DNA from: Laetmonice hystrix
Lineage: Eukaryota
Assembly: GCA_965235115.1 (NCBI GenBank)
Contig: OZ249436.1
Coordinates: forward strand, 23,872,001 to 23,936,000
DNA: 64,000 nt
Direction of reading: 5' to 3'
Below are positions 8,051 to 64,000 of the stretch, piece after piece. Every line of letters starts with the position of its first letter. Within the stretch, counting starts at the first letter, position 1. The translations under genes were made by a program, and so were the position numbers. Below the pieces are notes generated by a model. It ran no database searches, had not been told where the DNA came from, and worked only from the letters and a program-made list of their open reading frames with translations.

Positions 8051-11000
8051 AGTCAGGGGATGGGATCTTGAAATTGTCTGGTTTCGTCTTCCCTATTATT
8101 ATTATCCCATCCCCCGTCAGGGGATGGGATCTTGTCCCATCCCCCGTCAGGGGATGGGATCTTGAAATTGTCTGGTTTCGTCTTCCCTATTATTATCCCA
8201 TCCCCACGGAGGGGATGGGATTTTGAAATTGTAGTTGTGGGCTGTTGTTAGACACTATGTCTATCTCAGTCATTTTTCAAGATATCTCAACCAAACTTAG
8301 TACACATCTTGACCATGACGAAGTCTGGTCCCACAATGAGTCATGACGTCACGTGACGTCACGTCATGACGTCAATTTTTTTGGGACATTGGGGGCCATT
8401 TTTAATGTTCATATTGGGAATTTACAAAATCTATCATGGAGTTTTGATCAGGCAAGGGTCCTGTCTCAAAGCGACCCTTCATTTGACCTTTGACCTTTGA
8501 CCTTAGGGAGAACTGGCTCTTGGGTCAGAATCCTTTTGAATCGCTACTCCTTCCCCATTTCTTTGTATAATTGGACAATATCTGGTAGTACCATACTACA
8601 ACGAAAGGTTCAAACCCCACAAAGAGGGATTAGAGATTTGACCTATATTCACTGAACCACGTGACATTGAAGTTTTGAATAGTGCCAATTTTAGATATCT
8701 ATGGCTAAAACTCGAAGATGCTTGTCTATTAGGGCCATGTTTTTTATTGTACACAGATAGGAAGTGATATGCTCTTTCATTTGGCACCATAATTTTTAAG
8801 GGTTTACGCCCTATTTACTGAACCACGTGACCTGCAAGTTTAAAGTTAGGTCATTTGGAAGATTCCTGGCTGTAACTCTTGAAAGCTTTAAGGCAGAGCC
8901 ATAATTGTTCATGAATTTTATGAAGGGCTTTTAACAACACAAAACATACAAAGAGGGATTAGCGATTTGACCTATATTTGCTGAACCACGTGACCTTAAA
9001 GTTTTCAACAGGGGTCAGTTTAGATATTTATGGGTATAACTTGTAAACGGTGTCAGATAGGGTCATAGTTACTATTGAACATGAATAGGAAATCATATAT
9101 GGGCTTTCATTTGACACCATTATTTTGGAGGTCACGTGACCTATGACGTCATAACGACGTCACCTATAATTTCCCAGGGTTATAACTTGTAAATGGTTGA
9201 AGATAGAGCCATAGTTACTATTAAACACTAATAGGAAGTCATATATGATCTTTCATTATACACCTTCATTTTCCAGGTCATGTGACCTATGACGTCATAA
9301 GGATGTCATTGACATTTTCTCATGGCTTTAACTTGTAAACGGTGCCAGATAGAGCCATAGTTACTCTTGAACACGAATAGGAAGTCATATATGGTCTTTC
9401 ATTTGGCACCATTGTTTATGTAGGTCACGTGACGTATGACGTCATAAACGTCACCTATATTTTCCCAGGGCCATAACTTGTAAATGGTTGAAGATAGAGC
9501 CATAGTTACTATTAAACACTAATAGGAAGTCATATATGCTCTTTTATTATACACCTTCATTTTCCAGGTCACGTGCCCTATGACGTCATAAGGATGTCAT
9601 TGACATTTTCTCAGGGCTATAACTTGTAAACTGTGCCAGATAGAGCCATAGTTACTCTTGAACCCGAATAGGAAGTGATATATGGTCTTTCTTTTGGGAC
9701 CTTTGTTTTTTAAGTCACGTGACCCATGACGTCTTAACGACGTCACCTATATTTTCCCAGGGCCATAACTTGTAAATGGTTGAAGATAGAGCCATAGTTA
9801 CTATTAAACACTAATAGAAAGTCATATATACTCTTTCATTATACACCTTCATTTTCCAGGTCACGTGACTTATTACGTCAGAGCAAGGTCGCCAATATGT
9901 TCTCTGGGCCATAACTTGTAAACGGTGCCAGATAGGGCCATAGTTACTATTCAACACAAATAGGAAGTCATATATGGTCTTTCATTTGAGACCATTATTT
10001 TTCGGGTCACGTGACCTGTGACGTCATAACGACGTCACCTATATTTGCCCAGCGCGATAACTTGTAAATGGTTGAAGATATAGCCATAGTTAGTATTAAA
10101 CAGTAATAGGAAGTCATATGTACTCTTTCATTATAGACCTTCATTTTCCAGGTCACGTGACCTATGACGTCATAAGAATGTCATTGGCATTTTCTAAGGG
10201 CTATAACTTGTAAATGGTTGAAGATTGAGCCATAGTTACTAGTAAACCCTAATATGAAGTCATATATACATGCTCTTTCATTATGCACCCATGATTTTCC
10301 AGTCAGGTGACCCATGACGTCATAGCAAGGTCGCCAATATGTTCCCAGGGCTATAACTTGTAAACGGTGCCAGATAGGGGCATAGCTACTATTGAACACG
10401 AATAGGAAGTCATATATGGTCTTTCATTTGGCACCATTGTTTTGTACGTCACGTGACCTATGACGTCATAAGGAGGTCACCTATATATTCCCTGGGCTAT
10501 AACTTGTAAATGGTTGAAGATGCAGCCATAGTTACTATGACGTCATAAGGATGTCATAAATATTCTCTCAGGGTCATATCTTGACACGTTACCTGGAACT
10601 TCCCAAACACCACTGCCTATGACAGATGTGTCGGGAAGTGTCTGCCTGGAACGTAACTCTACTCAAACTCAATTACAGAAAGGACATGTCACCCCGGGGA
10701 TGGGATCCATCGTGGTCTCGCCACGACATGACTAGTTATCCCATCCCCATGGAGGGGATGGGATCTTGAAATTGTCGGGTTTCGTCTTCCGTATTATTAT
10801 TATCCCATCCCCCGTCAGGGGATGGGATCTTGAAATTGTCTGGTTTCGTCTTCCATATTATTATTATCCCATCCCCCGTCAGGGGATGGGATCTTGAAAT
10901 TGTCTGGTTTCGTCTTCCCTATTATTATCCCATCCCCCGTCAGGGGATGGGATCTTGAAATTGTCTGGTTTCGTCTTCCCTATTATTATTCTTTGCGTCG

Positions 11001-14000
11001 TAGTAGTAGTAGGAGTTAAGACATTTCGTCTATCTCAGTCATTTTTCAAGATATCTCAATCAAACTTGGCACACGTCTTGACCATGACAAAGTCAGGTCA
11101 CACAATCAATCATCACGTCACGTCACGTCACGTCACATCATGACGTCATGACGTCAAACGTGTCTTGCACATTGGGGCCATTTTTTTAAAGTCTTATTCG
11201 AAATTTTCAAAACCCGTCATGGCGTTTTAATCAGGCAAGGGTCCTGTCTCAAGTTGACCCTTCATTTGACCTTTGACCTTTGACCTTAAGGAGAACTGGC
11301 TACTGGGTCAGAATCGGGTTAAATCGCTACCCCTTCCCCATTTCTGGGAAGAATTTGACAATATCTGGCAGTACCCCTCTACATCGAAAGGTTCAAAACA
11401 TACAAAGAGGGATTAGCGATTTGACCTATATTTACTGAACCACGTGACCTTAAAGTTTTCAACAGCGGTCAGTTTAGATATTTATGGGTATAACTTTTAA
11501 ATGGTGCCAGACAGGGCCATAGTTACTATTGAACATGAATAGGAAGTCATATATGGTCTTTCATTTGACACCATTATTTTGTGGGTCACGTGACCTATGA
11601 CGTCAGAACGACGTCACCTATATTTCCCCAGGGCCATAACTTGTAAATGGTTGAAGATAGAGCCATAGTTACTATTAAACACTAATAGGAAGTCATATAT
11701 GCTCTTTCATTAAACACCTTCATTTTTCAGGTCACGTGACCTATGATGTCATAAGGATGTCATTGACATTTTCTCAGGGCTATAACTTGTAAACGGTGCC
11801 AGATAGGGCCATAGTTACTCTTGAACACGAATAGGAAGTCATATATGGTCTTTCATTTGGCACCATTGTTTTGTAGGTCACGTGACCTATGACGTCAGAA
11901 CGACGTCACCTATATTTCCCCAGGGCCATAACTTGTAAATGGTTGAAGATAGAGCCATAGTTACTATTAAACACTAATAGGAAGTCATATATGCTCTTTC
12001 ATCAAACACCTTCATTTTTCAGGTCACGTGACCTATGATGTCATAAGGATGTCATTGACATTTTCTCAGGGCTATAACTTGTAAACGGTGCCAGATAGGG
12101 CGATAGTTACTATTCAACACGAATAGGAAGTCATATATGGTCTTTCATTTGGCACCATTGTTTTGTACGTCACGTGACCTATGACGTCATAAGGAGGTCA
12201 CCTATTCCTTGGGCTATAACTTGTAAATGTTTGAAGATACAGCCATAGTTACTATGACGTCATCAGGATGTCATACATATTCTCTCAGGGCTGTAACTTT
12301 ACTCAAACTCAATATCAGAAGGGACACGTCACCCCGGGGATGGGATCCATCGTGGTCTCGCCACGACATGACTAGTTATCCCATCCCCCGTCAGGTGATG
12401 GGATCTTGAAATTGTCTGGTTTCGTCTTCCCTATTATTATTATCCCATCCCCCGTCAGGGGATGGGATCTTGAAATTGTCTGGTTTCGTCTTCCCTATTA
12501 TTATTCTTTGCGTCGTAGTAGTAGTAGTAGGAGTTAAGACATTTCGTCTATCTCAGTCATTTTTCAAGATATGTCAATCAAACTTGGCACACGTCTTGAC
12601 CATGACAAAGTCAGGTCACACAATCAATCATCACGTCACGTCACGTCACGTCACATCATGACGTCATGACGTCAAACGTGTCTTGCACATTGGGGCCATT
12701 TTTTTTAAAGTCTTATTCGAAATTTTCAAAACCCATCATGGCGTTTTAATCAGGCAAGGGTTCTGTCCCAAGTTGACCCTTCATTTGACCTTTGACCTTT
12801 GACCTTAAGGAGAACTAGCTACTAGGTCAGAATCGGGTTGAATCGCTACCCCTTCCCCATTTCTTGGGAAAATTTGACAATATTTGGTAGTACCACTCTA
12901 CATCGAAAGGTTTAAAACATACAAAGAGGGATTAGCGATTTGACCTATATTTATTGAACCATGTGACCTTAAAGTTTTGAACAGTGGTCAGTTTAGATAT
13001 CTTTGGCTACAACTTGTAAACGGTGCCAGATAAGGCCATAGTTACTATTGAACATGAATAGGAAGTCATATATAGTCTTTCATTTGGCACCATTATTTTG
13101 TAGGTCACGTGACCTATGACGTCATAACGACGTCACCTATATTTTCCCAGGCCCATAACTTGTAAATGGTTGAAGATAGAGCCATAGTTACTATTAAACA
13201 CTAATAGGAAGTCATATATGATCTTTCATTATACACCTTCATTTTCCAGGTCACGTGACCTATGACGTCATAAGGATGTCATTGACATTTTCTCAAGGTT
13301 ATAACTTGTAAACGGTGACAGATAGGGCCATAGTTACTCTTGAACACGAATAGGAAGTCATATATGGTCTTTCATTTGGCACCATTGTTTTGTAGGTCAC
13401 GTGACCTATGACGTCATAGCAAGGTCGCCAATATATTCTCAGGGCTATAACTCGTAAATGGAGCCAGATAGGGCCACAGTTGTTATTGAACATGAATATG
13501 AAGTCATATATGGTCTTTCATTTGACACCATTATTTTGTAGGTCACGTGACCTATGACGTCATAACAACGTCACCTATATTTTTCCAGGGCCATAACTTG
13601 TAAATGGTTGAAGATACAGCCATAGTTACTATTAAACACCAATAGGAAGTCTTATATGCTCTTTCATTTTGCACCCATATTTTTCAAGTCACGTGACCTA
13701 TGACGTCATAACAAGGTCACCTATATTTCCCCAGGGTTATAACTTGTAAATGGTTTAAGATAGAGCCATAGTTACTATTAAACACTAATAGGAAGTCTTA
13801 TATGCTCTTTCATTTTGCACCCATATTTTCCAGGTCACGTGACCTATGACGTCATAGCAAGGTCGCCAATATGTTCCCAGGGCTATAACTTGTAAACGGT
13901 GCCAGATAGGGCCATAGTTACTCTTGAACACGAATAGGAAGTCATATATGGTCTATCATTTGGCACCATTGTTTTGTACGTCACGTGACCTATGACGTCA

Positions 14001-17000
14001 TAACGACGTCACCTATATTTTCCCAGGGCCATAACTTGTAAATGGTTGAAGATAGAGCCATAGTATTAAATTGAAGTCATATATACTCTTTCATTATACA
14101 CCTTCATTTTCCAGGTCACGTGACCTATGACGTCAGAGCAAGGTCGCCAATATGATTTCAGGGCTATAACTTGTAAACGCCAGAAATGCCAGATAGGGCC
14201 ATAGTTACTATTGAACACGAATAGAAAGTCATATATGGTCTTTCATTTTGCACCCATATTTTTCAAGTCACGTGACCTATGACGTCATAACAAGGTCACC
14301 TATATTTTCTCAGGGCTATAACTTGTAAATGGTTGAAGATTGAGCCATAGTTATTAGTAAACCCTAATATGAAGTCATATATACATGCTCTTTCATTATG
14401 CACCCATTTTCAAGTCACGTGACCTATCACGTCATAGCAAGGTCGCCAATATTTTCCATGGGCTATAACTTGTAAACGGTGCCAGATAGGGCGATAGTTA
14501 CTATTCAACACGAATAGGAAGTCATATATGGTCTTTCATTTTGCACCCATATTTTTCAAGTCACGTGACCTATGACGTCATAACAAGATCACCTATATTT
14601 TCTCAGGGCTATAACTTGTAAATGGTTGAAGATTGAGCCATAGTTATTAGTAAACCCTAATATGAAGTCATATTATACATGCTCTTTCATTATGCACCCA
14701 TTTTCAAGTCACGTGACCTATCACGTCATAGCAAGGTCGCCAATATTTTCCATGGGCTATAACTTGTAAACGGTGCCAGATAGGGCGATAGTTATTATTC
14801 AACACGAATAGGAAGTCATATATGGTCTTTCATTTGGCACCATTGTTTTGTACGTCACGTGACCTATGACGTCATAAGGAGGTCACCTATTCCTTGGGCT
14901 ATAACTTGTAAATGTTCGAAGATACAGCCATAGTTACTATGACGTCATTAGGATGTCATAAATATTCTCTCAGGGCTATAACTTGACCCCATACCTGGAA
15001 CTTGACAAACACCGCTGCCTATCACAGATGTGTCGGGAAGTCTCTGCCTTGAACATAACTTTACTCAAACTCAATATCAGAAGGGACACGTCACCCCGGG
15101 GTCTCGCCACGACATGACTAGTTCTTTGCGTTGTAGTTGTAGTAGTAGTAGTAGTAGTTAAGACATGTCGTTCTATCTCAGTCATTTTTCAAGATATCTC
15201 AATCAAACTTGGCTCAGATCTTGACCATGACAAAGTCAGGTCACACAATCAATCATGACGTCACGTCACGTCATGACGTCATGACGTCAAACGTGTCTTG
15301 CACATTGAGGCAATTTTTTTAAAAGTCATATTCGAAATTTTCAAAACCCCTCATGGCGTTTTAATCAGGCAAGGGTCCTGTCTCAAGTTGACCCTTCATT
15401 TGACCTTTGACCTTTGACCTTAAGGAGAACTGGCTACTGGGTCAGAATCGGGTTAAATCGCTACCCCGTCCCCATTTCTGGGAAAAATTTGACAATATCT
15501 GGCAGTACCCCTCTACATCGAAAGGTTCAAAACATACAAAGAGGGATTAGCGATTTGACCTATATTTACTGAACCACGTGACCTTAAAGTTTTCAATAGC
15601 GGTCAGTTTAGATATTTATGGGTATAACTTCTAAATGGTGCCAGACAGGGCCATAGTTACTATTGAACATGAATAGGAAGTCATATATGGTCTTTCATTT
15701 GACACCATTATTTTGGAGGTCACGTGACCTATGACGTCATAACCACGTCACCTATATTTTCCCAGGGCCATAACTTGTAAATGGTTGAAGATAGAGCCAT
15801 AGTTACTATTAAACACTAATAGGAAGTCATATATGATCTTTCATAATACACCTTCATTTTCCAGGTCACGTGACCTATGACATCAGAGCAAGATCGCCAA
15901 TGTGTTCTCAGGGCTATAACTTGTAAACGGTGCCAGATAGGGCCATAGTTACTATTGAACACGAATAGGAAATCATATATGGTCTTTCATTTGACACCAT
16001 TATTTTTTGGGTCACGTGACCTATGACGTCATAACGACGTCACCTATATTTTGCCAGGGCCATAACTTGTAAATGGTTGAAGATAGAGCCATAGTTACTA
16101 TTAAACACTAATAGGAAGTCATATATGCTCTTTCATTATACACCTTCATTTTCCAGGTCACGTGACCTATGACGTCATAAGGATGTCATTGACATTTTCT
16201 AAGGGCTATAACTTGTAAGCTGTGCCAGATAGAGCCATAGTTACTCTTGAACACGAATAGGAAGTCATATATGGTCTTTCTTTTGGCACCATTGTTTTGT
16301 AAGTCACGTGACCCATGACGTCTTAACGACGTCACCTATATTTTCCCAGGGCCATAACTTGTAAATGGTTGAAGATGGAGCCATAGTTACTATTAAACAC
16401 TAATAGGAAGTCATATATACTCTTTCATTATACACCTTCATTTTCCAGGTCACGTGACTTATGACGTCAGAGCAACGTCGCCAATATGTTCTCAGGGCCA
16501 TAACTTGTAAACGGTGCCAGATAGGGCCATAGATACTATTGAAAACGAATAGGAAGTCATATATGGTCTTTCATTTGAGACCATTATTTTTCAGGTCACG
16601 TGACCTGTGACGTCATAACGACGTCACCTATATTTGCCCAGCGCGATAACTTGTAAATGGTTGAAGATATAGCCATAGTTACTGTTAAACAGTAATAGGA
16701 AGTCATATGTACCCTTTCATTATAGACCTTCATTTTCCAGGTCACGTGACCTATGACGTCAGAGCAAGGTCGCCAATATGTTCTCAGGTCTATAACTTGT
16801 AAACGGTGCCAGATAGGGCCATAGTTACTATTGAACACGAATAGGAAGTCATATATGGTCTTTAATTTGACACCATTATTTTTTGGGTCCTGTGACCTAT
16901 GACGTCATAACGACGTCATCTATATTTTCCCTGGGCCATAACTTGAAAATAGTTGAAGATAGAGCCATAGTTACTATTAAACACTAATAGGAAGTCATAT

Positions 17001-17098
17001 ATACTCCTTCATTATACACCTTCATTTTCCGGGTCACGTGACTTATTGGAGCAAGGTCGCCAATATATTCTCAGGGCCATAACTTGTAAACGGTGCTA

Positions 17099-18212
17099 TA
17101 GTCCTTTGCAGCAAGTTAGGAACTGTCACGGGTAGCTCATTTGATCCCCAACAAATTCAGGGTTACTATTCTTAAATTTCAATAAAAGCTTCTAACATTA
17201 TAAAATAGTGTATGATCATAATAATAGCCCAGTTCAAAAGTTCTATCATGCAAGATTTTATTATATTATAAGAAAACACGATGACAACCCAGACTTTTAG
17301 TTAAACACATGGCCCATCTCATGGCCGCCGACGTCACAGCAGAGTCAGACTTCGCAGTGCTAGCAGCAGACATAATGCTGCTTTTACAAAAACTGGAATT
17401 CTGCTATGATTCAAACTCACATACACTTACACGCTTTACACTCATCTCAGGTAAAGGGCCAGAAAGTTTTAGCTCAATCGCACACTTTCTTATTGAGAAA
17501 ACATCAACGTTACATAAGACTTTTTGTGACAAGTTTTGACAGCTGTGACCCGGATGATAAACATGAAGAGGTCGACATCCTGGCAGTTAACATTATGCCA
17601 AACAGGAAGCTCTTACAAGGTCAAAATATCCCAGCATTAGAAAAAAATAATACAGTGGAAAACAGAAAAAGATTCCCTTTAAAAGGACATATAATAATAT
17701 GTTGTAAAAAAATTTGGACCTTAACTTATCATTGAAAATTAGCAATGACGTTGTTCTTCTGTGACGTCTGACAATGCATCTGTGACGTTTTGACCTATAA
17801 ACGTACAAAAACGGCAAATTTCGATCTCGCAGTGTGCTGCTGCTACAACTGGCAAAATTGAAGCTATAAAGATGACTGTAGTACCATTCGATCGGGAATT
17901 TAATTTTGAAACCAGCACACAAGATAGGATGTGTCAAGTTGAAAACGATGACCGCAGCGACACATTTACTGGTGCAGAGTCAAGGAAAATGGAAAATTTC
18001 GGCAAGTTTTTGTAGCTCTTCACACACTGCTAGCTTGTAGGATTTGAAGATTAGACAGATGTCATGTTGTGAATTACGTAGATCTAAGTCTAAGGTCTAG
18101 AATGGTGTTTATTTGAATACTGTAGACCCAATAGTTGCTGAGATATTAGCACCGGCACAAAAAATGTCAGGGCAACATGATGTTTTAGTTCCTAACTTGG
18201 TGACACGCGCTA
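17099..18212. mobile_element. 1114-bp non-autonomous TIR element with TA TSD (Tc1/mariner-like), copy 1
   Basis: Interrupts a 146-bp monomer (AACGGTGC-TA...TA-GATAGGGCC). Imperfect ~27-bp TIRs share CAAGTTAGGAACT / AGTTCCTAACTTG. Confidence 0.75.
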
Positions 18213-21200: not shown

Positions 21201-21424
21201 ATTATTTTTTGGGTCCTGTGACCTATGACGTCATAACGACGTCATCTATATTTTCCCTGGGCCATAACTTGAAAATAGTTGAAGATAGAGCCATAGTTAC
21301 TATTAAACACTAATAGGAAGTCATATATACTCCTTCATTATACACCTTCATTTTCCGGGTCACGTGACTTATTGGAGCAAGGTCGCCAATATATTCTCAG
21401 GGCCATAACTTGTAAACGGTGCTA

Positions 21425-37584: not shown

Positions 37585-37618
<34 letters not shown>

Positions 37619-43499: not shown

Positions 43500-43596
43500 G
43501 TATGTTTCTTTTTTTAAAATCTGCAAAGTTCTGTCCTAATATGCTTATTTGCATATAAGTGTCCACACCTGTATGTCGGGTTAGATTCGCTTGTTA

Positions 43597-44446: not shown

Positions 44447-44498
44447 TATATTTTGTACAACAGAATTATAATGGGAAAACATTCTTATCTTATTCCAG

Positions 44499-47339: not shown

Positions 47340-47342
47340 CAT

Positions 47343-52553: not shown

Positions 52554-54565
52554 TTCAGATTTGGAGATCAAGAACATGTCATAGTGTTCACATATAGCAA
52601 ACTGGAACACTGGGAGGGGAAATCGCAAACTGGGATATCTCGGGGGCAAACTGGGGCTATAATAGTGTTATGTCATTTAACCTAAATTTCATATACATAC
52701 ACAGATCGCAATGTAGAAAACAGTTAAAATATCTCCTGTCTTCTTCCTCATTTTTTGAAGAATCTTCTCCACATTTGGTATACCTATTTTAGAGTGGGGT
52801 TCTTCAATTGGTGACAGTCTTTAAGCCATATGATTTAACATGGCTGAGTCATGTGAATTTTAAATTTGTCTATTTTGCATCTAATCAGGAAGCAGATTAA
52901 ATCTCAGTGACAATTATGGCATAATTCTCTTCGATTAGGCGTCTTTTCTTACCCTGCAATGACATACCGGTAGCCCCTGTATGACATATACTAGTACTAA
53001 GTATGACGTAGTTCATTGCTGCAATGGTCCTTCATTTACAGCAAGATTCTAGGAAATCTTTGTGTGCACAGATGGCTTAGTGGTAATCTTTCTCTTAGTA
53101 CCCTACGTTCATTACTGGTATGGTTGACTTTCTTTCATGCCTTACACAGCCTTTCTAGATACATCCATAGAGGAACGGGATACCTGATTGCCTGCAATCT
53201 GGAGGTCTAGTTATTATTATTATTATCCCATTCCCCCGGAGGGGAATGGGATATTGAAATTGTCGATGTTAGTGTACACTATTATTATTATACTTCATTA
53301 TTGTTGTAGTTAGACAATGCCTGTATCTCACTCATTTTTCAATGGATCTTAATGAAACTTGGGCTGATGGTTGATTATGGGACAAATTACTTATATTATT
53401 ATGCATGACGTCATATGACGTCATATGACGTCACATCATGGAGTTATAACTTCACAGGCAACAACCTTATTGTAGAGCCCCAGGAGCAGCTAGACAAAAT
53501 GTATTCATTTCAGGGACCTTGGTTCGTAATGCAGAATCATTTTTTTTATCAGTTTGGTCTCTGACCTTTGACCCTTCCGAGATCTAGGTCACGGGTCAAA
53601 ATGTGACCAAATCGCTACTTCTCCCTGAATTTTTAACGAACTGAGCCCAAATTGGCTACAGCACATCTCCATTGGGGTGTTCAACTGAGAACTTCATGGT
53701 TACGCGCTGTGCCCTATTTTGACCTAGAGACGTGACCTTAAACTTTGGAAATTATGTCATTTGGAAGAGTCCTGGCTGTAACTCTCGAAATATTTAAAAA
53801 AGAATCATAATTCTTCTTGATCCTGATAAAAGGTTATGTTCTCTTTAATTAGGTACGAATTTCTATTAATCACGTGACTTGTGACGTCATCTATGACGTC
53901 ATCTTTGACATCATCTATTCCTAACGTTGTGGGACTTCTCAACTACAGGCGATAAGCTCACAGCCTTAAATATTTACAGGGTTGGGGTCTTCAAACTGTC
54001 TACTTTAACATGCTATAAATTTCAATTAGCAAAATATATAATTAACAACACGGAGATCAATTATGTAAGTTAAGGTCGTGAAGAGAGACAGCGAATTTGG
54101 CCACTGATCGAGTGACCTAGAAACCTGGTTAGTGAGTGACGTCAGCTTGTCGCTCAGTCTCTGCATGGAGAGGTTGACAGCACACACTGTTACTAACCAC
54201 CTCTGTAGTAAAGAAGTATCGATTATTTCTGTCTGAAACGGGAGGAGTACTTCAGAGACATATTTAGCTCAATGCAAGACTATTTTGAAGAGATAGTCGT
54301 CTTGTAATAGAGGCGAGATGAACTCGGAAGCAATGACAAATCTCAGTTAAAAATCCAATGGCGTTCTCCATAGAGAAGTCCACACTGCAGACAGTGACGC
54401 ATATTTAATATTTAAAAGTAGACTACTGTATATTTTCGGTATGGAACGTGAAATACAGCTGTAAAACATGTATAGCTGAAATACTGGCAATTGTCAAGGC
54501 GAGAAACATAATATTTTTCTAATTTAGTGGCCGAAAAAAATCAAAAACGGAAAAAAAATTATAAT

Positions 54566-54632
54566 GACTTGGCCTGGGTTTGAACCCGGGACCTGTCAGC
54601 TACGAAGCACTGGTGCTGCCATCGTGCTATGA
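54566..54632 (-). other. tRNA-derived cassette (antisense to the element)
   Basis: Minus strand TAGCACGATGG ... GGTCCCGGGTTCAAACCC followed by a T-run. Confidence 0.55.
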
Positions 54633-55894
54633 TATTTTACATGCTTTATTTGCATTGAATTCGTACCAATGCCTGGCTTGGTAGGTAGCAGGGGTAACTT
54701 CAAAAATATTTAATCTTTTGCTTTGAAAGCCTATGTATGTTATATATATGTATATAAAGCATGTATAGCTCCTTGTGTGTAAAGTTTAAAGAGCTATAAT
54801 TGCGTTTTGGCTAAGTAAATAGCTAGAGAGTAGAGTTAGAAATTGCCTGTTGCCCTGACAACAAACACAGATGGATCTGCAAGCGGACAATTGGCTTGTT
54901 ACCAATACTATATATCACGACGGTGGCCACATACACCTGAAGCACTGTGGCTGAAGGTTTTTTTTTTTTTTTTTTTTTTACAGTAGGCTGTAACCAGGAC
55001 AGGGGCACAACTGCCGGGGGGACGGGGGACATGCCATCCCCCCTCCCCCCACTTTTGCTGGCGACCTAAAAAGGTCAAAGGTAGCCTGGTCCCCAGGTTT
55101 ATATTGACTACATGTATGGAGGGTATAGGCACAGTCTGTTTCAACTACTGTCAAAAGCAATGCCTTTTCGACTTGTTCATATGTAATCTCACTCGGCGCT
55201 ACCTCGACAGATGGCAGATCATGTCTCGGCCGTAAAGGTCAGGTCGCCATTTTTGAAAGTAGTCACACAACTAAACAAACCCATGTGCTTTCCACAGCTC
55301 CCATCTTGGGCTTTGTCGCTATAAAAAAAATTCTAGTGGGTGTTCACGGAATAAGGGACGGTGATCAGAGTTATGTGAAATAACGTCCTCCTGAATTTGT
55401 ATCTCGCCTAGACTGCCTCACCAGTTTCCGAGCGCTTCGCGCTAGCAGTAGATCTAGCAGCGGGGGCCGGTCTCCCCGCTGTCGGTAGCTGCCCCGGGGA
55501 GTCAGCGAGTGTTGGTGGCCGACGATGGGACGAATGGAGGCATATAAGCCATTTCCGAGTTGAGCATATTTCTCTCTGTTTTGGTTTAACTGCCGCGACT
55601 TTCCTTTGGTTATCGGACAATTTTCAAGTGCATAATGCAATTACGCTGTAGGGATTACTTGGTCAGCGCGCATTGTGCACCCCCTGCCTGCTCACTCATA
55701 TTCATTCGTGCCGCATCACAAAGTCACACAAAACTGTCCATTACACCCGAGGTGAAAATCCGAACCCACCGGAAGGTGGCGGACTTTCCCGAGGGTTCCC
55801 GAATGATGTAATCTCTGAAAGTTAAACAGGTGTTGGAACGGTCACAACATGTGGTGGCTGTTTTTTTTCTATTAAATTAAATGACAGTATGGGA

Positions 55895-56378
55895 AGTATG
55901 CTATCAAATGGTGGTCAAATTAGAAATTCGCAAATTTTGGCGGCCATCTTGAATTTTTCAGAATCAACGAAAAAAAAGTCATGTGATACCTCATTTCCAC
56001 GTAATTTTTCCTGCTGAATCCAATGGTGAAAACGCGACATTGATATCTTTAACCATATTCGAGATTTTGAGGATTTTCATTCAAAATGGGTGAAAAAAAC
56101 CCAACTTTCATGAGCCATAGCACAAAAACTATTATGGATAGGCAAACCATCTTGGAGTCAGAGACAGGATGGGTAGTATGCTATCAAATGGTGGTGAAAT
56201 TAGAAATTCGCAAATTTTGGCGACCATCTTGAATTTTTCAGAATCAACGAAAAAGGTCATGTGATACCTCATTTCCACGTAATTTTTCCTGCTGAATCCA
56301 ATGGTTAAAACGCGAAGTTGATATCTTTAACCATAGTCGAGATTTTGAGGATTTTCATTCAAAATGGCTGGAAAAAAG
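55895..56378 (+). repeat. Two ~205-bp direct repeats, period 280
   Basis: AGTATGCTATCAAATGGTGGT...TTCAAAATGG at 55895 and 56175. Confidence 0.85.
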
Positions 56379-56554
56379 TCTAGATCTCAGCTAGCCATGG
56401 CTCTTATCGATTCTGTCAACCACCATAATCAACTGTGTTTCGTTCGAGTCCCTCTGTTTGTTTTGCCCCCACTGCAGTGTTCCTAAGGGGATTTCCTCTG
56501 GCCCCAAAGATGGGGAATGGGATCCGTTGTTGCGCTGCAACAACTCGTCTCTAG

Positions 56555-57543
56555 TTATACCTGTTGTAGTTGTAGTAGTAGTTAACAATCGGTCGATTTC
56601 TCAGTTGTTTCTTAAGGTATCGTAATGAAACTTCGTGGGACTCTTGCTCATGGGCATAGCAACTCATTTTTATATGCATGACGTCATATGACGTAATGTC
56701 ATAGAGTTATGACGTAATCAAAAGTTGGGGAAAATACCTGATTTCTAGATTCCCTGGAGGAGCAGAACAAAATTTATTCATATCGTGGACCTTATCACTT
56801 AAGTGCCCATAACTTTGTTACTACATTTGACCCCTGACCTTTAACCTTCTTGAGATGTAAGTCATATGTCAAAAAGTGACAAAATTGTTTCACGCCCCAC
56901 ATTTTTGGTCAAATCGACCCTAAATTGATTTCAGGAAATCTCCATGGGGACCTTCAATGGGGTTCTTTAGGATAAAGCGCTGTGAACTATTTTAAGGGTA
57001 CCACGTGGCATTGAAGTTGGGGTCATGACCGTTTTCAGAAACAATTGGCTGTAACTTCTAAACGGTGGAAGATGGAGCCTTGGTTACTATTGAACATGAA
57101 TAGGAAATCATATATGCTCTTTATTATATAATTTTTTTAGGTCACGTGACTATTTTTAAAAATTAGGGGGGAAAAATAAAAAAAGTGAAAAACATGCCGA
57201 GTACCGGGATTGATCCCCGGACCTCTCCGATGCGAGTCGAACACTCTTGACCATCGCCACGCAATTCTGACATGTGATTACAGGATTGAACTGGTACTGA
57301 TTACTAAAGGATATTTTGTAATTGCATTCAAATAGACCAATCCAAGATTTTGTAATAGGTCAACTGTCTGTGACACCAAGATGGCTTCTCTAAAATCAAT
57401 AGTTTTCATGCTATGGAATCTGAGAAGTGGCTTGGCACGACAGTTTCCCAGTGTGCACTGCATCAGGGTTCACAACGTGTTGACAAGTGATGATAACCAG
57501 GGGGATGGGATCCCTGTATTGCTTCAGCAATCAGTGTTTCTAG
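56555..57543 (+). mobile_element. Headless Helentron body and tail, subfamily E (copy 1)
   Basis: Starts in a (GTT/GTA)n tract right after a CTAG|TT; tail GGGGGATGGGATCCCTGT-ATTGCttcaGCAAT-CAGTGTTT-CTAG|TT. Antisense tRNA-like cassette at ~57196-57267. Confidence 0.82.
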
Positions 57544-59223
57544 TTATCCCATCCCCCGTCAGGGGATGGGATCTTGAAATTGTCTGGTTTCGTCTTCCCT
57601 ATTATTATTATTCTTTGCGTTGTAGTAGTAGTAGTAGTAGTAGTAGTAAACAGTGCCTCTATCTCAGTCAGTTTTCAAGATATCTCAATCAAACTTGGCT
57701 CAGATCTTGACCATGACAAAGTCAGGTCACACAATCAATCATGACGTCACGTCACGTCACGTCATGACGTCATGACGTCAAACGTGTCTTACACATTGGG
57801 GCCATTTTTTAAAAAGTCATATTCCAAATTTTTTAAAACTCATCATGGCGTTTTAATCAGGCAAAGGTCCTGTGTCAAGTTGACCCTTCATTTGACCTTT
57901 GACCTTTGACCTTAAGGAAAACTGGCTACTGGGTCAGAATCGGGTTGAATCGCTACCCCTTCCCCATTTCTTGGAAAAATTCGACAATATCTGGCATTAC
58001 CACTCTACATCGAAAGGTTCAAAACATACAAAGAGGGATTATCGATTTGACCTATATTTACTGAACCACGTGACCTTAAAGTTTTCAACAGAGGTCAGTT
58101 TAGATATTTATGGGTATAACTTGTAAACGGTGTCAGATAGGGTCATAGTTACTATTGAACATGAATAGGAAGTCATATATGGGCTTTCATTTGACATCAT
58201 TATTTTGTAGGTCACGTGACCTATGACGTCATAACGACATCACCTACATTTTCCCAGGGCCATAACTTGTAAATGGTTTAAGATAGAGCCATAGTTACTA
58301 TTAAACACTAATAGGAAGTCATATATACTCATTCATTATAGACCTTCATTTTCCAGGTCACGTGACCTATGACGTCAGAGCAAGGTCGCCAATATGTTCT
58401 CAGGTCTATAACTTGTAAACGGTGCCAGATAGGGCCATAGTTACTATTGAACACGAATAGGAAGTCATATATGGTCTTTCATTTGACACCATTATTTTTT
58501 GGGTCACGTGACCTATGACGTCATAACGACGTCATCTATATTTTCCCAGGGCCATAACTTTTAAATGGTTGAAGATACAGCCATAGTTACTCTGAAGCAC
58601 CAATAGGAAGTCATATATGCTCTTTCATTATGCACCCATATTTTTTCAGGTCACGTGACCTATGACGTCATACCTAGGTTACCTATACTTTTCAAGGGCT
58701 AATAACTTTTAAATGGTTGAAGATAGAGCCATAGTTACTATTAAACACGAATAGGAAGTCACATATCCTCTTTCGTTATACAACTTCATTTTCCAGGTCA
58801 CGTGACCTATGACGTCATAAGAATGTCATTGGCATTTTCTCAGGGCTATAACTTGTAAATGGTTGAAGATTGAGCCATAGTTACTAGTGAACATGAATAG
58901 GAAGTCATTATGGTCTTTCATTTGGTGTCATTGTTTTGTACGTCACGTGACCTATGACGTCATAAGGAGGTCACCTATTTCCTGGGCTATAACTTGTAAA
59001 TGGTTGAAGATACAGCCATAATTACTATGACGTCCTAAGGATGTCATAAATATTCTCTCAGGGCTATAACTTGACACAACCTGGCACTTCACAAACACCA
59101 CTGCCTATCACAGATGTGTCGGGAAGTGTCTGCCTTAAACGTAACTCTACTCAAACTCAATATCAGAAGGGACATGTCACCCCGGGGATGGGATCCATCG
59201 TGGTCTCGCCACGACATGACTAG
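57544..59223 (+). mobile_element. Complete non-autonomous Helentron, subfamily A (~1.7 kb, ~6 monomers)
   Basis: Head, (TAT)n/(GTA)n, core, 146-bp array and tail are all contiguous. Confidence 0.9.
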
Positions 59224-60232
59224 TTATACCTGTTGTAGTTGTAGTAGTAGTAGTAGTACCCGTAGTAGTAGTTAACAATGATCGATTTCTCAGTTGTTTC
59301 TTAAGGTATCGTAATGAAACTTGGTGGGACTCTTGCTCATGGGCATCGCAACTCATTTTTATATGCATGACGTCATATGACGTACCGTCATAGAGTTATG
59401 ACGTAATCAAAAGTTGGGGAAAATAGCTTATTTCTAGAGTCCCTGGAGGAGCAGAACAAAATTTATTCATATCGGGGACCTTATCACTTAAGTGCCCATA
59501 ACTTTGTTACTACATTTGACCCCTGACCTTTAACCTTCTTGAGATGTAAGTCATATGTCAAAAAGTGACAAAATGGTTTCACGCCCCACATTTTTGGTCA
59601 AATCGACCCCAAATTGATTTCAGGAAATCTCCATGGAGATCTTCAATGGGCTTCTTTATGATAAAGCGCTGTGACCTATTTTAGGGGTACCACGTGGCAT
59701 TGAAGTTGGGGTCATGGCCGTTTTCCGAAACAATTGGCTGTAACTTCTAAACGGTGAAAGATGGAGCCTTGGTTACTATTGTACATGAATAGGAAGTCAC
59801 ATATGCTCTTTATTATATAATTTTTTTTAGGTCACGTGACTATTTTAAAAAATTAGGGGGGAAAAATAAAAAAGTGAAAAACATGCCGAGTACCTGGATT
59901 GATCCCAGGACCTCTCCGATTGGAGTCGAACACTCTTGACCATCGCCACGCAATTCAGACATGTGATTATAGGATTGAACTGGTACTGATTACCAAAGGA
60001 TATTTTGTAATTGCATTCAAATAGACCAATCCAAGATTTTTTAATAGGTCAACTGTATGTGACACCAAGATGGCTTCTCTAAAATCAATAGTTTTCATGT
60101 TATGGAATCTGAGAGGTGGCTTGGCACGACAGTTTCCCAGTGTGCACTGCATCAGGGTTCACAACGTGTTGACAAGTGATGATAACCAGGGGGATGGGAT
60201 CCCTGTATTGCTTCAGCAATCAGTGTTTCTAG
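59224..60232 (+). mobile_element. Headless Helentron body and tail, subfamily E (copy 2)
   Basis: Colinear with 56555-57543 (ORFs 57278/59967 and 57381/60070 are near-identical). Confidence 0.82.
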
Positions 60233-61959
60233 TTTTTTGCGTAGTAGTAGTAGTAGTCGTAAACAGTACCTCTATCTCAGTCATTTTTCAAGATATCTCA
60301 ATCAAATTTGGCAGTCAGCTTGACCATGACAAAGTCAGATCACACAATCAGTCATGACGTCACGTGACATCACGTCATGACGTCATGACGTCAAACGTGT
60401 TTGGGACATTGAAGGCCATTTTTGAAGTTCATATTTGGAATTTTCAAGATCTATCATGGCCTTATGATGAGGCAAGGGTCTAGCCTAAAAGTGACCCTTC
60501 ATTTGACCTTTGACCTTTGACCTTAGGGAGAACTGGGTCCTAGGTCACAAATCGGTTAAATCGCTACTTCTTCATCATTTATTGGTAAAATTTGGCAATA
60601 TTGGGCAGGAACACTCTCTAACAAGTGCTTTAATAGAATTATCCAGGGATACACGATTTGACCTATATTCGCGTGAATCACGTGACCTTGAAATTTTCAA
60701 AAGTGGCCAGTTTAGCTATCTATGACTACAACTTCTAAACAGTGCCAGATAGGGCCATAGTTACTATTGAACACGAATAGGAAGTCATATATGCTCTTTC
60801 ATTTGGCACCATTATTTTTCAGGTCACGTGACCTATGATGTCATAACGATGTCAGCAATATTTTCTCAGGGCTATAACTTGTAAATGGTTGAAGATAGAG
60901 CCATAGTTACTATTAAACACTAATAGGAAGTCATATATGTTCTTTCACTTGACACCATTATTTTTCAGGTCACGTGACCTATGACGTCATAATGATGTCA
61001 ACCATGTTTTCTCAGGGCCATCACTTGTAAATGGTTGAAGTTAGAGTCAAACTTACTATTTAAGATGAATAGGAAGTCATATATGCTCTTTCATGTGGCA
61101 CCATTATTATTTTAGGTCACGTGACCTGTGATGTCATAAGAATGTCATCCATATTTTCTCAGGGCTATAACTTGTAAATGGTTGAAGATAAAGCCATAGT
61201 TACTATTATACACTAATAGAAAGTCATATATCCTCTTTCACTTGACACTATTATTTTTCAGGTCACGTGACCTATGACGTCATAATGATGTTATCCATAT
61301 TTTCGCAGAGCTATCACTTGTAAATGGTTGAAGTTAGAGTCATAGTTACTATTTAAGACGAATAGGAAGTCATATATGCTCTTTTATTTCGTACCATTAT
61401 TTTTTACATCACGTGACCTATGACGTCATTAATGATGTCATCCATAATATTTTCTCAGGGCTATAACTTGTAAATGGTTGAAGTTAGAGCCATAGTTACT
61501 ATTAAACGCTAATAGGAAGTAATATGTGCTCTTTCATTTGACACTATTATTTTTCAGGTCACGTGACCTATGACGTCATAATGATGTTATCCATATTTTC
61601 TCAGGGCTATCACCTGTAAATGGTGGAAGTTACAGCCATAGTTACTATTAAACACTAATAGGAAGTCATATGCGCTCTTTCATTTGGCACCATTATTTTT
61701 CAGGTCACGTGACCTATCAGGTCATAATGACATCATCCATATTTTCTTATTTTTCTGAGGGTTATAACTTGTAAATGGTTGAAGTTAGATCTATACCTAC
61801 TATTAAACACTAACACTGACAGGAAGCAATATAATATATGCTCTTTCATTTGACACCATCATTTTGAATAGCCTTAGCTCTCTCTACTAAATCAGAACAT
61901 GGTAGACAGGACCCCCCAGGGGATGGGATCCATTGTGGTTATCACCGCAACGGGTCTAG
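60233..61959 (+). mobile_element. Headless Helentron body and tail, subfamily F
   Basis: Diverged A-like core and 146-bp array; tail CAGGGGATGGGATCCA-TTGTGGttatcaCCGCAA-CGGGT-CTAG|TT. Confidence 0.82.
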
Positions 61960-64000
61960 TTATTCTTTGCGTTGTAGTAGTAGTAGTAGTAAACAGTGCC
62001 TCTATCTCAGTCAGTTTTCAAGATATCTCAATCAAACTTGGCTCAGATCTTGACCATGACAAAGTCAGGTCACACAATCAATCATGACGTCACGTCACGT
62101 CACGTCATGACGTCATGACGTCAAACGTGTCTTACACATTGGGGCCATATTTTTAAAGGTCATATTCGAAATTTTCAAAACCCATCATGGCGTCTTAATC
62201 AGGCAAGGATCCTGTCTCAAGTCGACCCTTCATTTGACCTTTGACCTTTGACCTTAGGGAGAACTGGCTCCTGGGTCAGAATCGGGTTGAATCGCTACCC
62301 CTTCCCCATTTGTTGGTAAAATTTGACAATATCAGGTACTACCACTCTACATCGAAAGGTTTAAAACATACAAAGAGGGATTAGCCATTTGACCTATATT
62401 TACTGAGAAACGTGACCTTAAAGTTTTCAACAGCGGTCAGTTGAGACATTTATGGGTATAACTTGTAAAAGGTGCCAGATAGGGCCACAGTTACTATTGA
62501 ACATGAATAGGAAGTCATATATCGTCTTTCATTTGACACCATTATTTTGTAGGTCACGTGACCTATGACGTCATAACGACGTCACCTATATTTTCCCAGG
62601 GTTATAACTTGTAAATGGTTGAAGATAGAGCCATAGTTACTATTAAACACTTATAGGAAGTCATATATGCTCTTTCATTATACACCTTCATTTTCCATGT
62701 CACGTGACCTATGACGTCATAGCAGGGTTGCCAATATGTCCCTAGGGCTATAACTCGTAAACGGTGGCAGATAGGGTCATAGTTACTATTGAACACGAAT
62801 AGGAAGTCATATATGGTGTTTAATTTGACACCATTAATTTGGAGGTCACGTGACCTATGACGTCATAACGACTTCACCTATATTTTCCCAGGGCTATAAC
62901 TTGTAAATGGTTGAAGATAGAGCCATAGTTACTATTAAACACTAATAGGAAGTCATATATACTCTTTCATTATACACCTTCATTTTCCAGGTCACGTGAC
63001 TTATGACGTCAGATCAAGGTCGCCAATATGTTCTCAGGGCCATAACTTGTAAACGGTGCCAGATAGGGCCATAGTTGCTATTGAACACGAATAGGAAGTC
63101 ATATATGGTCTTTCATTTGAGACCACTATTTTTCGGGTCACGTGACCTGTGACGTCATAACGACGTCACCTATATTTGCCCAGCGTGATAACTTGTAAAT
63201 GGATGAAGATAGAGCCATAGTTACTATTAAACAGTAATAGGAAGTCATATGTACCCTTTCATTATACACCTTCATTTTCCAGGTCACGTGACCTATGACG
63301 TCATAAGAATGTCATTGGCATTTTCTAAGGGCTATAACTTGTAAATGGTTGAAGATTGAGCCTTAGTTACTAGTAAACCCTAATATGAAGTCTTATATAC
63401 ATGCTCTTTCATTATGCACCCATAACTTTCCAGTCACGTGACCTATGACGTCATAGCAAGGTCGCCAATGTGTTCTCAGGGCTATAACTTGTAAACGGTG
63501 CCAGATAGAGCCATAGCTACTCTTGAACACGAATAGGAAGTCATATATGGTCTTTCATTTGACACCATTATTTTGGAGGTCACGTGACCTATGACGTCAT
63601 AAACGTCACCTATATTTCCCAGGGCCATAACTTGTAAATGGTTGGAGATAGAACCATAGTTACTATTAAACACTAATAGGAAGTCATATATACTCATTCA
63701 TTATACACCTTCATTTTCCAGGTCACGTGACCTATGACATCAGAGCAAGGTCGCCAATATATTCTCAGGTCTATAACTTGTAAACGGTGCCAGATAGGGT
63801 CATAGTTACTATTGAACACGAATAGGAAGTCATACATGGTCTTTCATTTGACACCATTATTTTTGGGGTCACGTGACCTATGACGTCATAACGACGTCAT
63901 CTATATTTTCCCAGGGCCATAACTTGAAAATGGTTGAAGATAGAGCCATAGTTACTATTAAACACTAATAGGAAGTCATATATGCTCTTTCATTATACAC
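61960..64000 (+). mobile_element. Headless subfamily A body, cut by the window end
   Basis: TTATTCTTTGCGTTG(TAG)n, then core, then 146-bp array. Confidence 0.85.

Follow-up and report, generated by a model that had tools for sequence, protein, structure and literature searches.

Results

The window, a 64,000-nucleotide stretch of the Laetmonice hystrix genome described here from position 8052 to its end, is a nest of Helentrons: non-autonomous HINEs of at least six families (A to F among them) plus one copy encoding Rep, helicase, and AP endonuclease. Each element started with a perfect 11- to 12-bp hairpin, followed by a conserved GAAATTGT..GGTTTCGT box and then by (TAT)n; we refer to this 5' portion as the head. 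When the window's six head families were aligned, each had a tract of at least three TAT units in identical columns, ∼57 nt from the 5' end, with a GTA/GTT-rich tract directly 3' of it, as anticipated by an original prediction that placed (TAT)n some 60 bp inside each element and ahead of a GTA/GTT tract. The head hairpins folded with energies between −12.4 and −13.7 kcal/mol (z scores between −4.3 and −7.5), and stems of 5 to 8 bp were located 8 to 12 nt 5' of CTAG in five of five tails, with modest z scores (−1.1 to −3.0). The head subTIR ATCCCATCCCC pairs with GGGGATGGGAT in family-specific variants, and a GGGAT-containing subTIR arm lay 5' of the tail hairpin in 6/6 families. The non-coding elements were ordered as head, (TAT)n, (GTA/GTT)n, a 505-bp L module, a 146-bp array, and a 195-bp R module with tail. 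TT stood directly 3' of every tail examined. Reassembled host arrays matched intact ones when one TT was counted to the insert; a 2-bp TT duplication is indistinguishable from terminal Ts. The plus-strand open reading frame at 47340..52553 (1,737 amino acids) matched Helitron_like_N (Rep; 5.9e-35), PIF1 (1.2e-20), and Exo_endo_phos (AP endonuclease; 4.3e-08) in that order, which is the combination of Rep, PIF1-like helicase, and C-terminal AP endonuclease by which Helentrons are recognized. Subterminal inverted repeats, a 3' stem-loop, and a non-coding layout of microsatellite plus satellite-like array likewise place these elements with Helentrons and HINEs.

All features of the window lay on the plus strand, and heads were paired with bodies in last-in-first-out (LIFO) order. 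The leftmost feature was a 5'-truncated A head lacking its first 12 nt (8052..8103), whose immediate left neighbor was a 146-bp tandem array and whose LIFO body was at 65029-66890. A 30-bp unit of the head hairpin was present twice at 8105..8164 (TRF, 100% identity); this duplication is local slippage, not insertion. An orphan A head (8136..8194), with the open body from 61960 as its LIFO partner, preceded a complete A-variant element comprising head, L module, 146-bp array, R module, and tail (8195..10735). Four stacked A heads followed at 10738..10990 (starting at 10738, 10802, 10866, and 10927); the first three were each broken within their own (TAT)n by the next head, and the last began the complete A element that is innermost in this first stack (10927..12375). 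Next were an orphan A head (12378..12441) and a complete A element (12442..15121) with an A' tail, a deletion variant without the 3' subTIR and one hairpin arm. A headless A body with A' tail (15122..19442), a headless A body with tail (19443..23339), and a complete A element (23342..26187) came before two further headless A bodies with tails, one beginning TT ATT CTTTGCG (26188..29848) and the other TT (ATT)4 CTTTGCG (29849..33657); the latter held an additional 199-bp tandem repeat at 32429-33270.

Further right, an orphan E head (33660..33724; partner body at 60235) and three orphan D heads (33725, 33796, and 33870; 33725..33934) were followed by a complete F element (33935..37526), a complete non-autonomous B element (37529..39039), and the 14-kb headless B body of a putatively autonomous Helentron (39040..53210), for which no B head was on the stack. 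At 53211..53224, TT(ATT)4 remained of a host D microsatellite between this insert and the next, a complete C element (53225..56554). A headless D body with D tail (56555..57543), a complete A element (57546..59223), a second headless D body with D tail (59224..60232), and a headless E body with E tail (60233..61959) completed the series up to a headless A body that runs past the window end (61960..64000), whose tail was found at window coordinate 65028. The junction of the C element with the D body was unique in the genome; 23 of 40 scored matches to it covered the C tail only, ending 2 to 8 nt past CTAG. ARAGORN detected no tRNA genes in the window. The B element contained tRNA-like stretches.

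Exactly 16 Helentron-type CTAG|TT tails were counted, with CTAG ending at 10735, 12375, 15121, 19442, 23339, 26187, 29848, 33657, 37526, 39039, 53210, 56554, 57543, 59223, 60232, and 61959. The 17 full heads started at 8136, 8195, 10738, 10802, 10866, 10927, 12378, 12442, 23342, 33660, 33725, 33796, 33870, 33935, 37529, 53225, and 57546, and the truncated head at 8052 was the only partial one. Heads were stacked in groups of four (10736-10990), two (12376-12505), and five (33658-34011). No real minus-strand termini were present in the window: two regex matches were mirror images of plus-strand heads. The sequence 3' of the tails was a head in 7/16 cases and TT(ATT)0-4 plus a headless body in 9/16, and the running head-minus-tail count stayed at or above zero along the window. 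This recount returned the same numbers as the original prediction (17 heads and one partial head against 16 tails, all on one strand) and found the stacks where it had put them; its further claims, that every tail is continued by a head or by the (TAT)/(GTA) tract of a headless body and that the count never turns negative, were borne out by all 16 junctions and by the bracket parse, respectively.

When the window was parsed strictly as LIFO brackets, 15 of 16 tails closed a head of the same family, and eight of nine headless bodies belonged to the family of the head then topmost on the stack. For example, the bodies D, D, E, and A at 56 to 62 kb mirrored the stacked heads E, D, and D at 33.6 kb. 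The two heads still open at the window end closed at tails 65028 and 66890, bringing the depth to 0 at 2.9 kb beyond the window. The nesting order claimed beforehand thus predicted the family of nearly every headless body and closed its brackets. Removal of the inner elements also restored an outer one as expected: with the body at 60235 placed directly behind the E head at 33660, the canonical E junction CCCTATTATTATTTTTTGCG of intact E copies reappeared. The only LIFO mismatch in the window was the B body at 39040 without a B head, together with one D head without a body. Because one B head was missing and one D head was surplus, the exact 17/16 balance is partly luck.

Pairing was similar across the genome, where A and D bodies and D heads were counted as exact motifs. 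Family D comprised 92 bodies and 88 heads (54/54 on one strand and 38/34 on the other). The D bodies preceded by CTAG TT(ATT)0-5, that is, headless, numbered 42/92, and about half of the bodies were headless in each of three families (A, 359/662; D, 42/92; E, 10/20 in a sample). Of the 42 headless bodies of family D, 34 could be LIFO-paired with an orphan D head on their own strand no more than 100 kb upstream, leaving 8 bodies and 17 orphan D heads unpaired. In a control limited to 30 kb, such a head was found upstream of 31/42 headless D bodies, downstream of 10/42, and on the opposite strand for 4/42. Stacked heads without matched downstream bodies, as expected of mere tandem duplications, were therefore not the rule in the window (8/9 matched) or genome-wide (34/42). 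At C21:10062415, a D head in unique flank was followed by a tail and a headless D body, the orphan head of which was absent.

Most sampled termini adjoined another Helentron rather than ordinary TT sites or free (TAT)n. Among 30 sampled A tails, 15 ran into a body, 8 into a head, and 7 into unrelated sequence; tails adjoining the head or the microsatellite/body of another Helentron numbered 23/30 for A, 24/28 for D, and 83/95 in a de-duplicated set (77 to 87%). E heads lay within another Helentron in 9/10 cases, and 16 of 30 sampled D bodies were headless, behind tails of at least five families and with 0 to 5 ATT units. All 107 adjoining termini at 68 loci shared the same strand, and reverse inserts in head arrays numbered 0. 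CTAGTT(ATT)4 occurred 460 times genome-wide versus once for the reversed control. Of the 205 sites on the forward strand, the strand to which the follow-on counts refer, 105 were followed by a GTA tract and 18 by a head; 20 of the remaining sites were sampled, and 19 proved to be bodies of other Helentron families and 1 did not. Insertion at a fixed distance from the head was not found, orphan D heads retaining 2 to 6 TAT units. A hot spot exactly at resident 3' ends was considered because, outside the window, no spacer separated tail from head in 20 of 27 joints; the arrays are short, so re-use of a site by chance is likely, and we make no such claim.

Free arrays were common in comparison. 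The head-adjacent motif TTGT-N16-(TAT)4 was found 1,748 times against 3,582 V(TAT)4 arrays genome-wide, so that about half of the genomic arrays of at least four TAT units were not adjacent to a head. None of the 95 de-duplicated tails lay in a free array of at least two ATT units, and among the first 12 arrays of at least six TAT units on contig 1, 8 were free and uninterrupted. The expectation that these elements insert preferentially into the microsatellites of their relatives thus held, element-borne arrays being strongly favored, with the qualification that targeting crossed families. Even so, same-family nesting was over-represented.

Other processes have altered these loci. Segments 13904-18825 and 18214-23142 were 97.5% identical over 4,947 bp, collinear across a tail/body junction, where other copies reached 93 to 94%; from this alignment, the unit at 15122-19442 is best read as a hybrid that formed when unequal crossover duplicated 4.3 kb, so that one or more units did not originate by insertion. 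Strict LIFO order is blurred by this duplication, one missing head, and one surplus head. At C1:70578664-70590117, eight units of tail plus headless A body recurred with an exact period of 1,433 bp, which looks like tandem amplification. Two contigs carried the same double E head, each in a context of its own. Duplications, and possibly also composite mobilization, inflate the junction counts. The host E copy had 24 other copies 100% identical over 143 nt, whereas the best non-self match of D was 98%. Host E therefore appears younger than the D nested in it, which fits nesting only if divergence from the nearest relative is a poor clock in a small D family; identity to the nearest relative gave no clean age order with inner elements younger than outer ones and was used as evidence in neither direction.

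Discussion

Very probably, these nested Helentrons were built by insertion into the (TAT)n of resident elements, locked in orientation and in LIFO order, and were later reshaped. The results establish the anatomy, the family-matched LIFO order, head and body numbers that balance across the genome, the locked orientation, and a strong excess of insertions into element-borne over free arrays. A new copy would enter the resident's (TAT)n at a TAT|TAT step, between its two Ts, so that the resident is split and its orphan head lies to the left of the insert and its headless body to the right. Inserts would share the orientation of their host because TT occurs on one strand only of (TAT)n. Each insert would supply a fresh (TAT)n, so targets would increase as the locus grows, giving bracket-like stacks. 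Unequal crossover, either between 146-bp arrays or among stacked heads, may later have reshaped nested units, and composites may sometimes have been mobilized whole, as two heads with a single tail or when an inner tail was read through. Such mobilized composites would account for both the absent B head and the D head in excess.

The stacked heads and the units of tail plus headless body might instead be local tandem duplications of a head-to-tail array, arising by slippage or unequal crossover. Duplication did occur, within a head (30 bp), across a junction (4.3 kb), and in the 1,433-bp periodic array, and the D heads at 33725-33934 are 97% alike. Yet it leaves unexplained the mixed-family head stacks with reverse-order bodies 20 to 28 kb away (in the window and also at locus L062), the equal numbers of D heads and bodies (88 and 92), the varying ATT counts at junctions with many tail families, and the genome-unique junctions flanked by 100%-identical tails. 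Tandem duplication as the main cause is largely refuted, and we give it very little credence. By-products of rolling-circle replication seem equally improbable: concatemers or circle junctions would yield tail-TT-head joints, and alternative nicking in (TAT)n would yield truncated copies that insert beside ends. The spacerless tail-to-head joints outside the window have the sequence expected of a circle junction, and tandem Helitrons are described in the available text of earlier reports (PMC5148889, PMC7492417). However, zero-spacer joints also cross families (F-B, D-A, and A-E in the window and A-D at locus L058), which is impossible for concatemers, and insertion of truncated copies predicts no ordered pairing, against the pairing of 34/42 bodies and the family match of 8/9 reported above. 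That false stacks were made by collapsed or mis-joined repeats in the assembly is hardly credible. The region is highly repetitive, and contigs from public reads (four runs, one sample) were too short to bridge the junctions, and none spanned an empty site; over 52900-58100, their joints connected paralogous repeats, e.g., a C head with an A head. Nevertheless, scores of loci, spread over at least 15 contigs, show the same grammar, in locus-specific combinations and with exact reassembly of microsatellites.

Two readings bear on why element-borne arrays are preferred. According to one, which we consider unlikely though deserving of weight, nesting is real and any (TAT)n is suitable through a preference for AT|T, with no recognition of the resident; the excess would come from copying of nested junctions by segmental duplication or composite transposition, by which inserts in free arrays cannot be copied. 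Consistent with it, ATT precedes 8/9 heads in unique flanks, inserts in the three-unit E array sit at ATT|ATT steps in 9/10 cases and at the array edge in one, with the adjoining T6 run spared, and copied junctions exist, as does the double head shared by two contigs in different contexts. Against it, tail family and ATT count combine in at least 12 distinct ways among the 16 sampled headless D bodies, so that most of these arose separately. Moreover, given how often the 92 D arrays are hit, many inserts would be expected in free arrays, which are about as numerous as element-borne ones; inserts in free arrays numbered 0/95 tails, 0/8 long free arrays, and ∼1/20 unclassified CTAGTT(ATT)4 sites. 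The preference may alternatively stem from a transposase that recognizes the resident head. We tentatively suggest that the 5' head could be a docking module, in which the transposase would recognize the resident hairpin and GAAATTGT..GGTTTCGT box, the same site that it would need for starting transposition, and deliver the strand to AT|T of (TAT)n, making (TAT)n an element-encoded landing pad maintained by selection acting on the elements. If docking is true, new copies are channeled into old ones, a safe haven as far as the host genome is concerned, and the pad multiplies with each hit; no rolling-circle transposon would have been described before as carrying its own target site, and the microsatellite carried by HINEs would be given a function.

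Insertion into residents' (TAT)n explains the clustering of these elements, the uniform orientation of clusters, and how satellite-like arrays come to lie side by side for amplification by unequal crossover. It offers a testable function for the simple repeat in a whole transposon class and suggests how a very abundant transposon may keep the harm done to host genes low.

Helentrons and HINEs include DINE-1 of Drosophila and Cg_HINE of the Pacific oyster (PMC4067079, PMC7492417, PMC2374699). According to the available portions of these papers, they share with the present elements the Rep, helicase, and AP endonuclease protein, a 5' subTIR with inverted repeat, a microsatellite, central tandem repeats, and a 3' subTIR with short palindrome; the published elements are described as inserting between T and T without target duplication, the ownership of the terminal Ts being uncertain (PMC4067079, PMC7492417, PMC2374699). 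The likeness to Cg_HINE (Crassostrea gigas) and Repbase Helitron-N_Cgi is one of architecture only, as far as the available text goes (PMC7492417, PMC8268682). The accessible text of the oyster paper reports a T-rich/TT preference and insertions in repetitive DNA. In the sections available, none of these papers states that an element's own microsatellite is the main target, an orientation lock, or bracket pairing (PMC4067079, PMC7492417, PMC2374699), and the word "nested" is absent from those of PMC7492417 and PMC2374699. The DINE-1 microsatellite is described there as GTCY-rich, with no TT step, whereas the window elements have a separate (TAT)n before the GTA/GTT tract.

A telomere-targeting rolling-circle element also targets one strand of a simple repeat with absolutely fixed orientation; its repeat, however, is the host telomere and not element-borne, with no self-renewing target and no nesting. 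The rice element Micron is reportedly a microsatellite-targeting DNA transposon, but one that moves by cut and paste into a host repeat with target duplications. Double insertion is said to have been proposed as a source of tandem transposon dimers by McGurk and Barbash in 2018. MuTAnT elements in TA repeats are similar in that, through a strong preference for certain sites, several copies end up in one simple repeat or at one site, and differ in being cut-and-paste elements with target duplications in a repeat that belongs to the host, according to the part of the report available (PMC4486113).

A precedent comes from Fusarium, where Helitron2-like elements have a single 3' end but several short 5' ends; insertion of a copy into the 5' region of another was proposed as their origin, with later transposition of composites that starts at the outer 5' end and stops at the first 3' end (PMC5148889, as available). 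The composite mobilization suggested here for surplus heads is the same device. That proposal is a hypothesis from few cases, and its available text contains no microsatellite target, genome-wide census, cross-family stacks, or orientation argument (PMC5148889). The idea that such a system is undescribed for rolling-circle elements accordingly needs narrowing: in the text available from the literature searched, we found no prior description of the microsatellite landing pad, the scale, or the orientation lock, but 5' self-insertion had been proposed for Fusarium Helitron2 (PMC5148889).

The oyster "complex loci" of Satovic-Vuksic and Plohl (2021), which combine Helitron parts with satellite arrays and are available to us through later citing papers (PMC12628747, PMC11136912), are probably loci of the same kind, with truncated or tandemized element parts inside other elements, as in the window. 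They are cited as shuffled through insertions and deletions, through tandemization, and through recombination, with no rule of landing or direction given in the citing passages (PMC12628747, PMC11136912). With insertion into residents' (TAT)n as the rule, such complex, shuffled Helentron loci become a readable grammar, in which heads and bodies can be re-paired, the relative order of insertions recovered, and repeat annotation made cleaner.

RESULTS

Anatomy and termini of the elements in the window

From position 8052 to its end, the window (23,872,001 to 23,936,000 of contig 1; assembly size, 627 Mb in 35 contigs) consists almost entirely of Helentron-type rolling-circle elements on the plus strand. 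A single element carries a 1,737-amino-acid (aa) open reading frame (ORF; 47340-52553) in which a Helitron_like_N domain is followed by PIF1 helicase and then Exo_endo_phos; this order defines Helentrons. The remaining elements are noncoding HINEs, each built of a 64- to 75-nt head (the 5′ end), (TAT)n followed by a GTA/GTT-rich tract, a unique module of ∼505 bp, a 146-bp repeat array, and a right module of ∼195 bp whose end is formed by a short hairpin plus CTAG. Six families (A to F) were separable by head and tail (the 3′ end, CTAG|TT). All six heads open with a perfect 11- to 12-bp hairpin (−12.4 to −13.7 kcal/mol), share the box GAAATTGT..GGTTTCGT, and carry (TAT)≥3 at identical alignment columns. 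In protein domains, subterminal inverted repeats, 3′ palindrome, and module order, the window elements agree with Helentrons and HINEs.

Several elements bear additional features. In frame with the 1,737-aa Rep/helicase/endonuclease ORF, and parted from it by one stop (47337-47339), lies a 955-aa ORF (44472-47339) without a Pfam match. The two may belong to a single gene, either read through or interrupted, or may be separate genes; the smaller ORF contains tandem repeats of 24 bp (9.8 copies, 44577-44811) and 51/54 bp (46554-47077). The F element holds an inverted repeat of ∼780 bp (35588-36370 versus 36693-37468, 95% identical), possibly another transposon or a foldback. ARAGORN called no tRNA gene in three tRNA-like stretches with GGTTCGAATCCC-type T-arm motifs, at 38250-38325 and 38620-38690 in the small B element and at 57195-57265 in the first D body, so these may be SINE or tRNA-derived fragments. 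Between the 146-bp array and right module of one A element, a 199-bp tandem repeat (32429-33270; 4.2 copies, 98% identity, internal palindrome) resembles a secondary satellite of recent origin or a captured insert.

We recounted the termini on which the original prediction of nested elements was based, and its counts were correct in every countable respect. The window contains 16 tails, 17 full heads, and one truncated head (8052), with a 30-bp internal duplication (8105-8164) not counted as a head; stacks of four, two, and five heads lie where predicted, and there is no genuine minus-strand terminus. Each tail runs either into a new head (7/16) or into TT(ATT)0-4 and a headless body, that is, a body severed from its head (9/16), as had been proposed.

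Heads and tails pair as nested brackets

Window termini were parsed without adjustment as last-in-first-out brackets. For 15 of the 16 tails, the head that is closed belongs to the same family, and 8 of 9 headless bodies match the family of the then-topmost stacked head, which speaks against the stacked heads being simple local tandem duplications with no subfamily-matched bodies downstream. The clearest example comes from the E, D, D, D, F stack (33660-34011): 20 to 28 kb downstream, past complete F, B, and C elements, there are two D bodies, an E body, and finally an A body, reversing the head order. The heads at 33725-33934 were assigned to D and that at 33660 to E because exactly these heads are found on intact copies elsewhere (D, 14 of 30 bodies; E, 10 of 20). 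Joined in silico, the E head (33660) and the E body (60235) yield CCCTATTATTATTTTTTGCG, the junction of intact E copies. Within 5.7 kb past the window end, two further tails (65028 and 66890) close both open heads, bringing the count to zero.

The parse also has exceptions. A 14-kb putatively autonomous B body at 39040 sits after the tail of the small B element at a point where the stack offers no further B head, and one D head lacks a body. In addition, the segments 13904-18825 and 18214-23142 align collinearly through a tail/body junction at 97.5% identity over 4.9 kb, versus 93 to 94% among other A copies. In the middle unit (15122-19442), the 5′ body is of the type found in the right-hand neighbor, whereas the defective tail is that of the left-hand one, matching the product that unequal crossover between the two 146-bp arrays would give. 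Given these exceptions, the exact balance of 17 heads to 16 tails is partly fortuitous. Two identical A tails (15090-15121 and 19411-19442), both inside the duplicated 4.3-kb block, lack the 3′ subTIR and the hairpin 5′ arm; such tails should be poor terminators.

The left edge of the nest is a rearrangement too, with the truncated head (8052) fused to a bare 146-bp array. This adjoining array is satellite-like and standalone. In 1-8051, upstream of the nest, the 146-bp arrays at 4727-5005 and 6693-8040 are accompanied by neither a head nor an L or R module, and repeats of 34 bp and 172 bp lie at 254-1362. Elsewhere on contig 1 (70578664-70590117, minus strand), eight units of tail, TT ATT, and headless A body recur with an exact 1,433-bp period, which looks like a headless Helentron unit undergoing amplification as a satellite.

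Junctions between elements across the genome

The original prediction called for tabulating the sequence beyond each terminus. In samples selected by one terminus alone, 23 of the 30 best-matching A tails, two of the 30 being in or beside the window, adjoin another Helentron (15 body, 8 head), as do 24 of 28 D tails (18 body, 6 head). In a de-duplicated pool of termini from outside the window (five rows corrected by hand), 83 of 95 tails run into a head (27) or a body (56), and 12 reach unrelated sequence; most copies do not sit at ordinary TT sites. The 61 pooled heads lie after a tail (27), in the array of another head (28), in unique flank (5), or after a partial duplication (1). Junctions with D bodies are diverse, involving tails from at least five families and 0 to 5 ATT units. 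The C-in-D junction of the window is unique in the genome, and 23 of 40 scored hits to it match the C tail only, ending 2 to 8 nt past CTAG. Adjacent termini agreed in strand in 107 of 107 cases at 68 loci, and no reverse-oriented insert was found in head arrays among these loci; orientation is absolute because (TAT)n carries TT on one strand only.

Whole-genome counts were obtained by pattern searches. The D family has 92 body-start motifs and 88 heads (bodies/heads by strand, 54/54 and 38/34), and CTAG TT(ATT)0-5 immediately precedes 42 of the 92 bodies. Judged solely by coordinates, the D heads comprise 34 whose own body is no more than 140 nt away and 54 orphans. Of the 42 headless D bodies, 34 found an orphan D head as partner within 100 kb upstream, mostly 1 to 28 kb away, when paired last-in-first-out per contig and strand; 8 bodies and 17 heads remained unpaired. 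As a control for clustering, orphan heads were sought within 30 kb: 31 of 42 bodies had one upstream on their own strand, versus 10 of 42 downstream and 4 of 42 on the other strand. Tails adjoin 359 of 662 A bodies. Of 20 E bodies sampled, 10 lack a head, and 9 of the 10 E heads are embedded in another Helentron; the E copy of the window has 24 further copies that match it at 100% identity over 143 nt. About half of the copies in three families have already been hit.

Element-borne versus free arrays and the target step

In 1748 instances (control, 53) a head precedes (TAT)≥4 with the canonical spacing, and the whole genome holds 3582 arrays of at least four TAT units starting after non-T. Of the first 12 (TAT)≥6 arrays of contig 1, 4 are head adjacent; the 8 free ones reach lengths of up to 27 units and have no Helentron end beside them. 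Free arrays thus equal or exceed element-borne arrays in number. Nevertheless, not one of the 95 de-duplicated tails outside the window lies in a free array. CTAGTT(ATT)4 occurs 460 times (control, 1); at the 205 forward-strand sites, a GTA tract comes next in 105 and a head in 18, and 20 sampled from the remainder comprised 19 bodies of further Helentron families and 1 stretch of unrelated DNA.

The element-borne count is inflated by duplication and possible composite mobilization. Even so, at least 12 separate events can be told apart among the 92 arrays of the D family alone, and we therefore conclude with moderate confidence that the context of the resident element matters for insertion.

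In unique flanks, ...ATT precedes 8 of 9 heads, and in the short E array inserts lie at ATT|ATT, with none in the neighboring T6 run; the favored step is thus AT|T, once per (TAT)n unit. At L043/L044 (sampled loci, contig 19, ∼13.81 Mb), a D-like body has a head inserted within the first few bases of its GTA/GTT tract rather than in a (TAT)n (…GTTGTAGTT|ATCCC…), so other TT steps close to the 5′ end are occasionally used.

DISCUSSION

The most likely mechanism starts from what the sequences show: new copies enter the (TAT)n of resident copies in host orientation, with no host bases lost beyond the TT ambiguity, so that nested stacks build up as a cluster expands. A transposase able to recognize the head of a resident copy may account for the preference for element-borne arrays. 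Unequal crossover between arrays or neighboring heads would later edit the stacks, and composites may move as units, from outer head to first tail or from inner head to outer tail; both routes together would explain the surplus heads and the headless autonomous body. A stacked E-head pair whose outer member is a TTTAG variant was seen at L081/L101 and L086/L102 (contigs 30 and 13), once in unique flank and once within a deeper stack, which hints that double-headed composites move as units.

Such nesting should interest researchers of rolling-circle elements and of satellite DNA. In the literature searched, which did not include the 2021 original on complex loci, we found no description of insertion into resident (TAT)n as a rule, of its scale, or of bracket pairing. 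Related behavior has been reported. Oyster HINEs show a TT/oligo-T preference and insertions into repeats, in text that, as far as available, does not use the word "nested" (PMC7492417), and reviews from that group, citing a 2021 paper, refer to complex loci in which pieces of elements are inserted into other elements (PMC12628747, PMC11136912). Every window tail precedes TT, where a TT target-site duplication and terminal Ts of the element would look alike. Self-insertion was the explanation offered for the several 5′ ends of Helitron2 elements in Fusarium, and the composite route from outer head to first tail was proposed there (PMC5148889). For Paramecium Helitrons, the reported target is one strand of telomeric repeats (PMC13085455).
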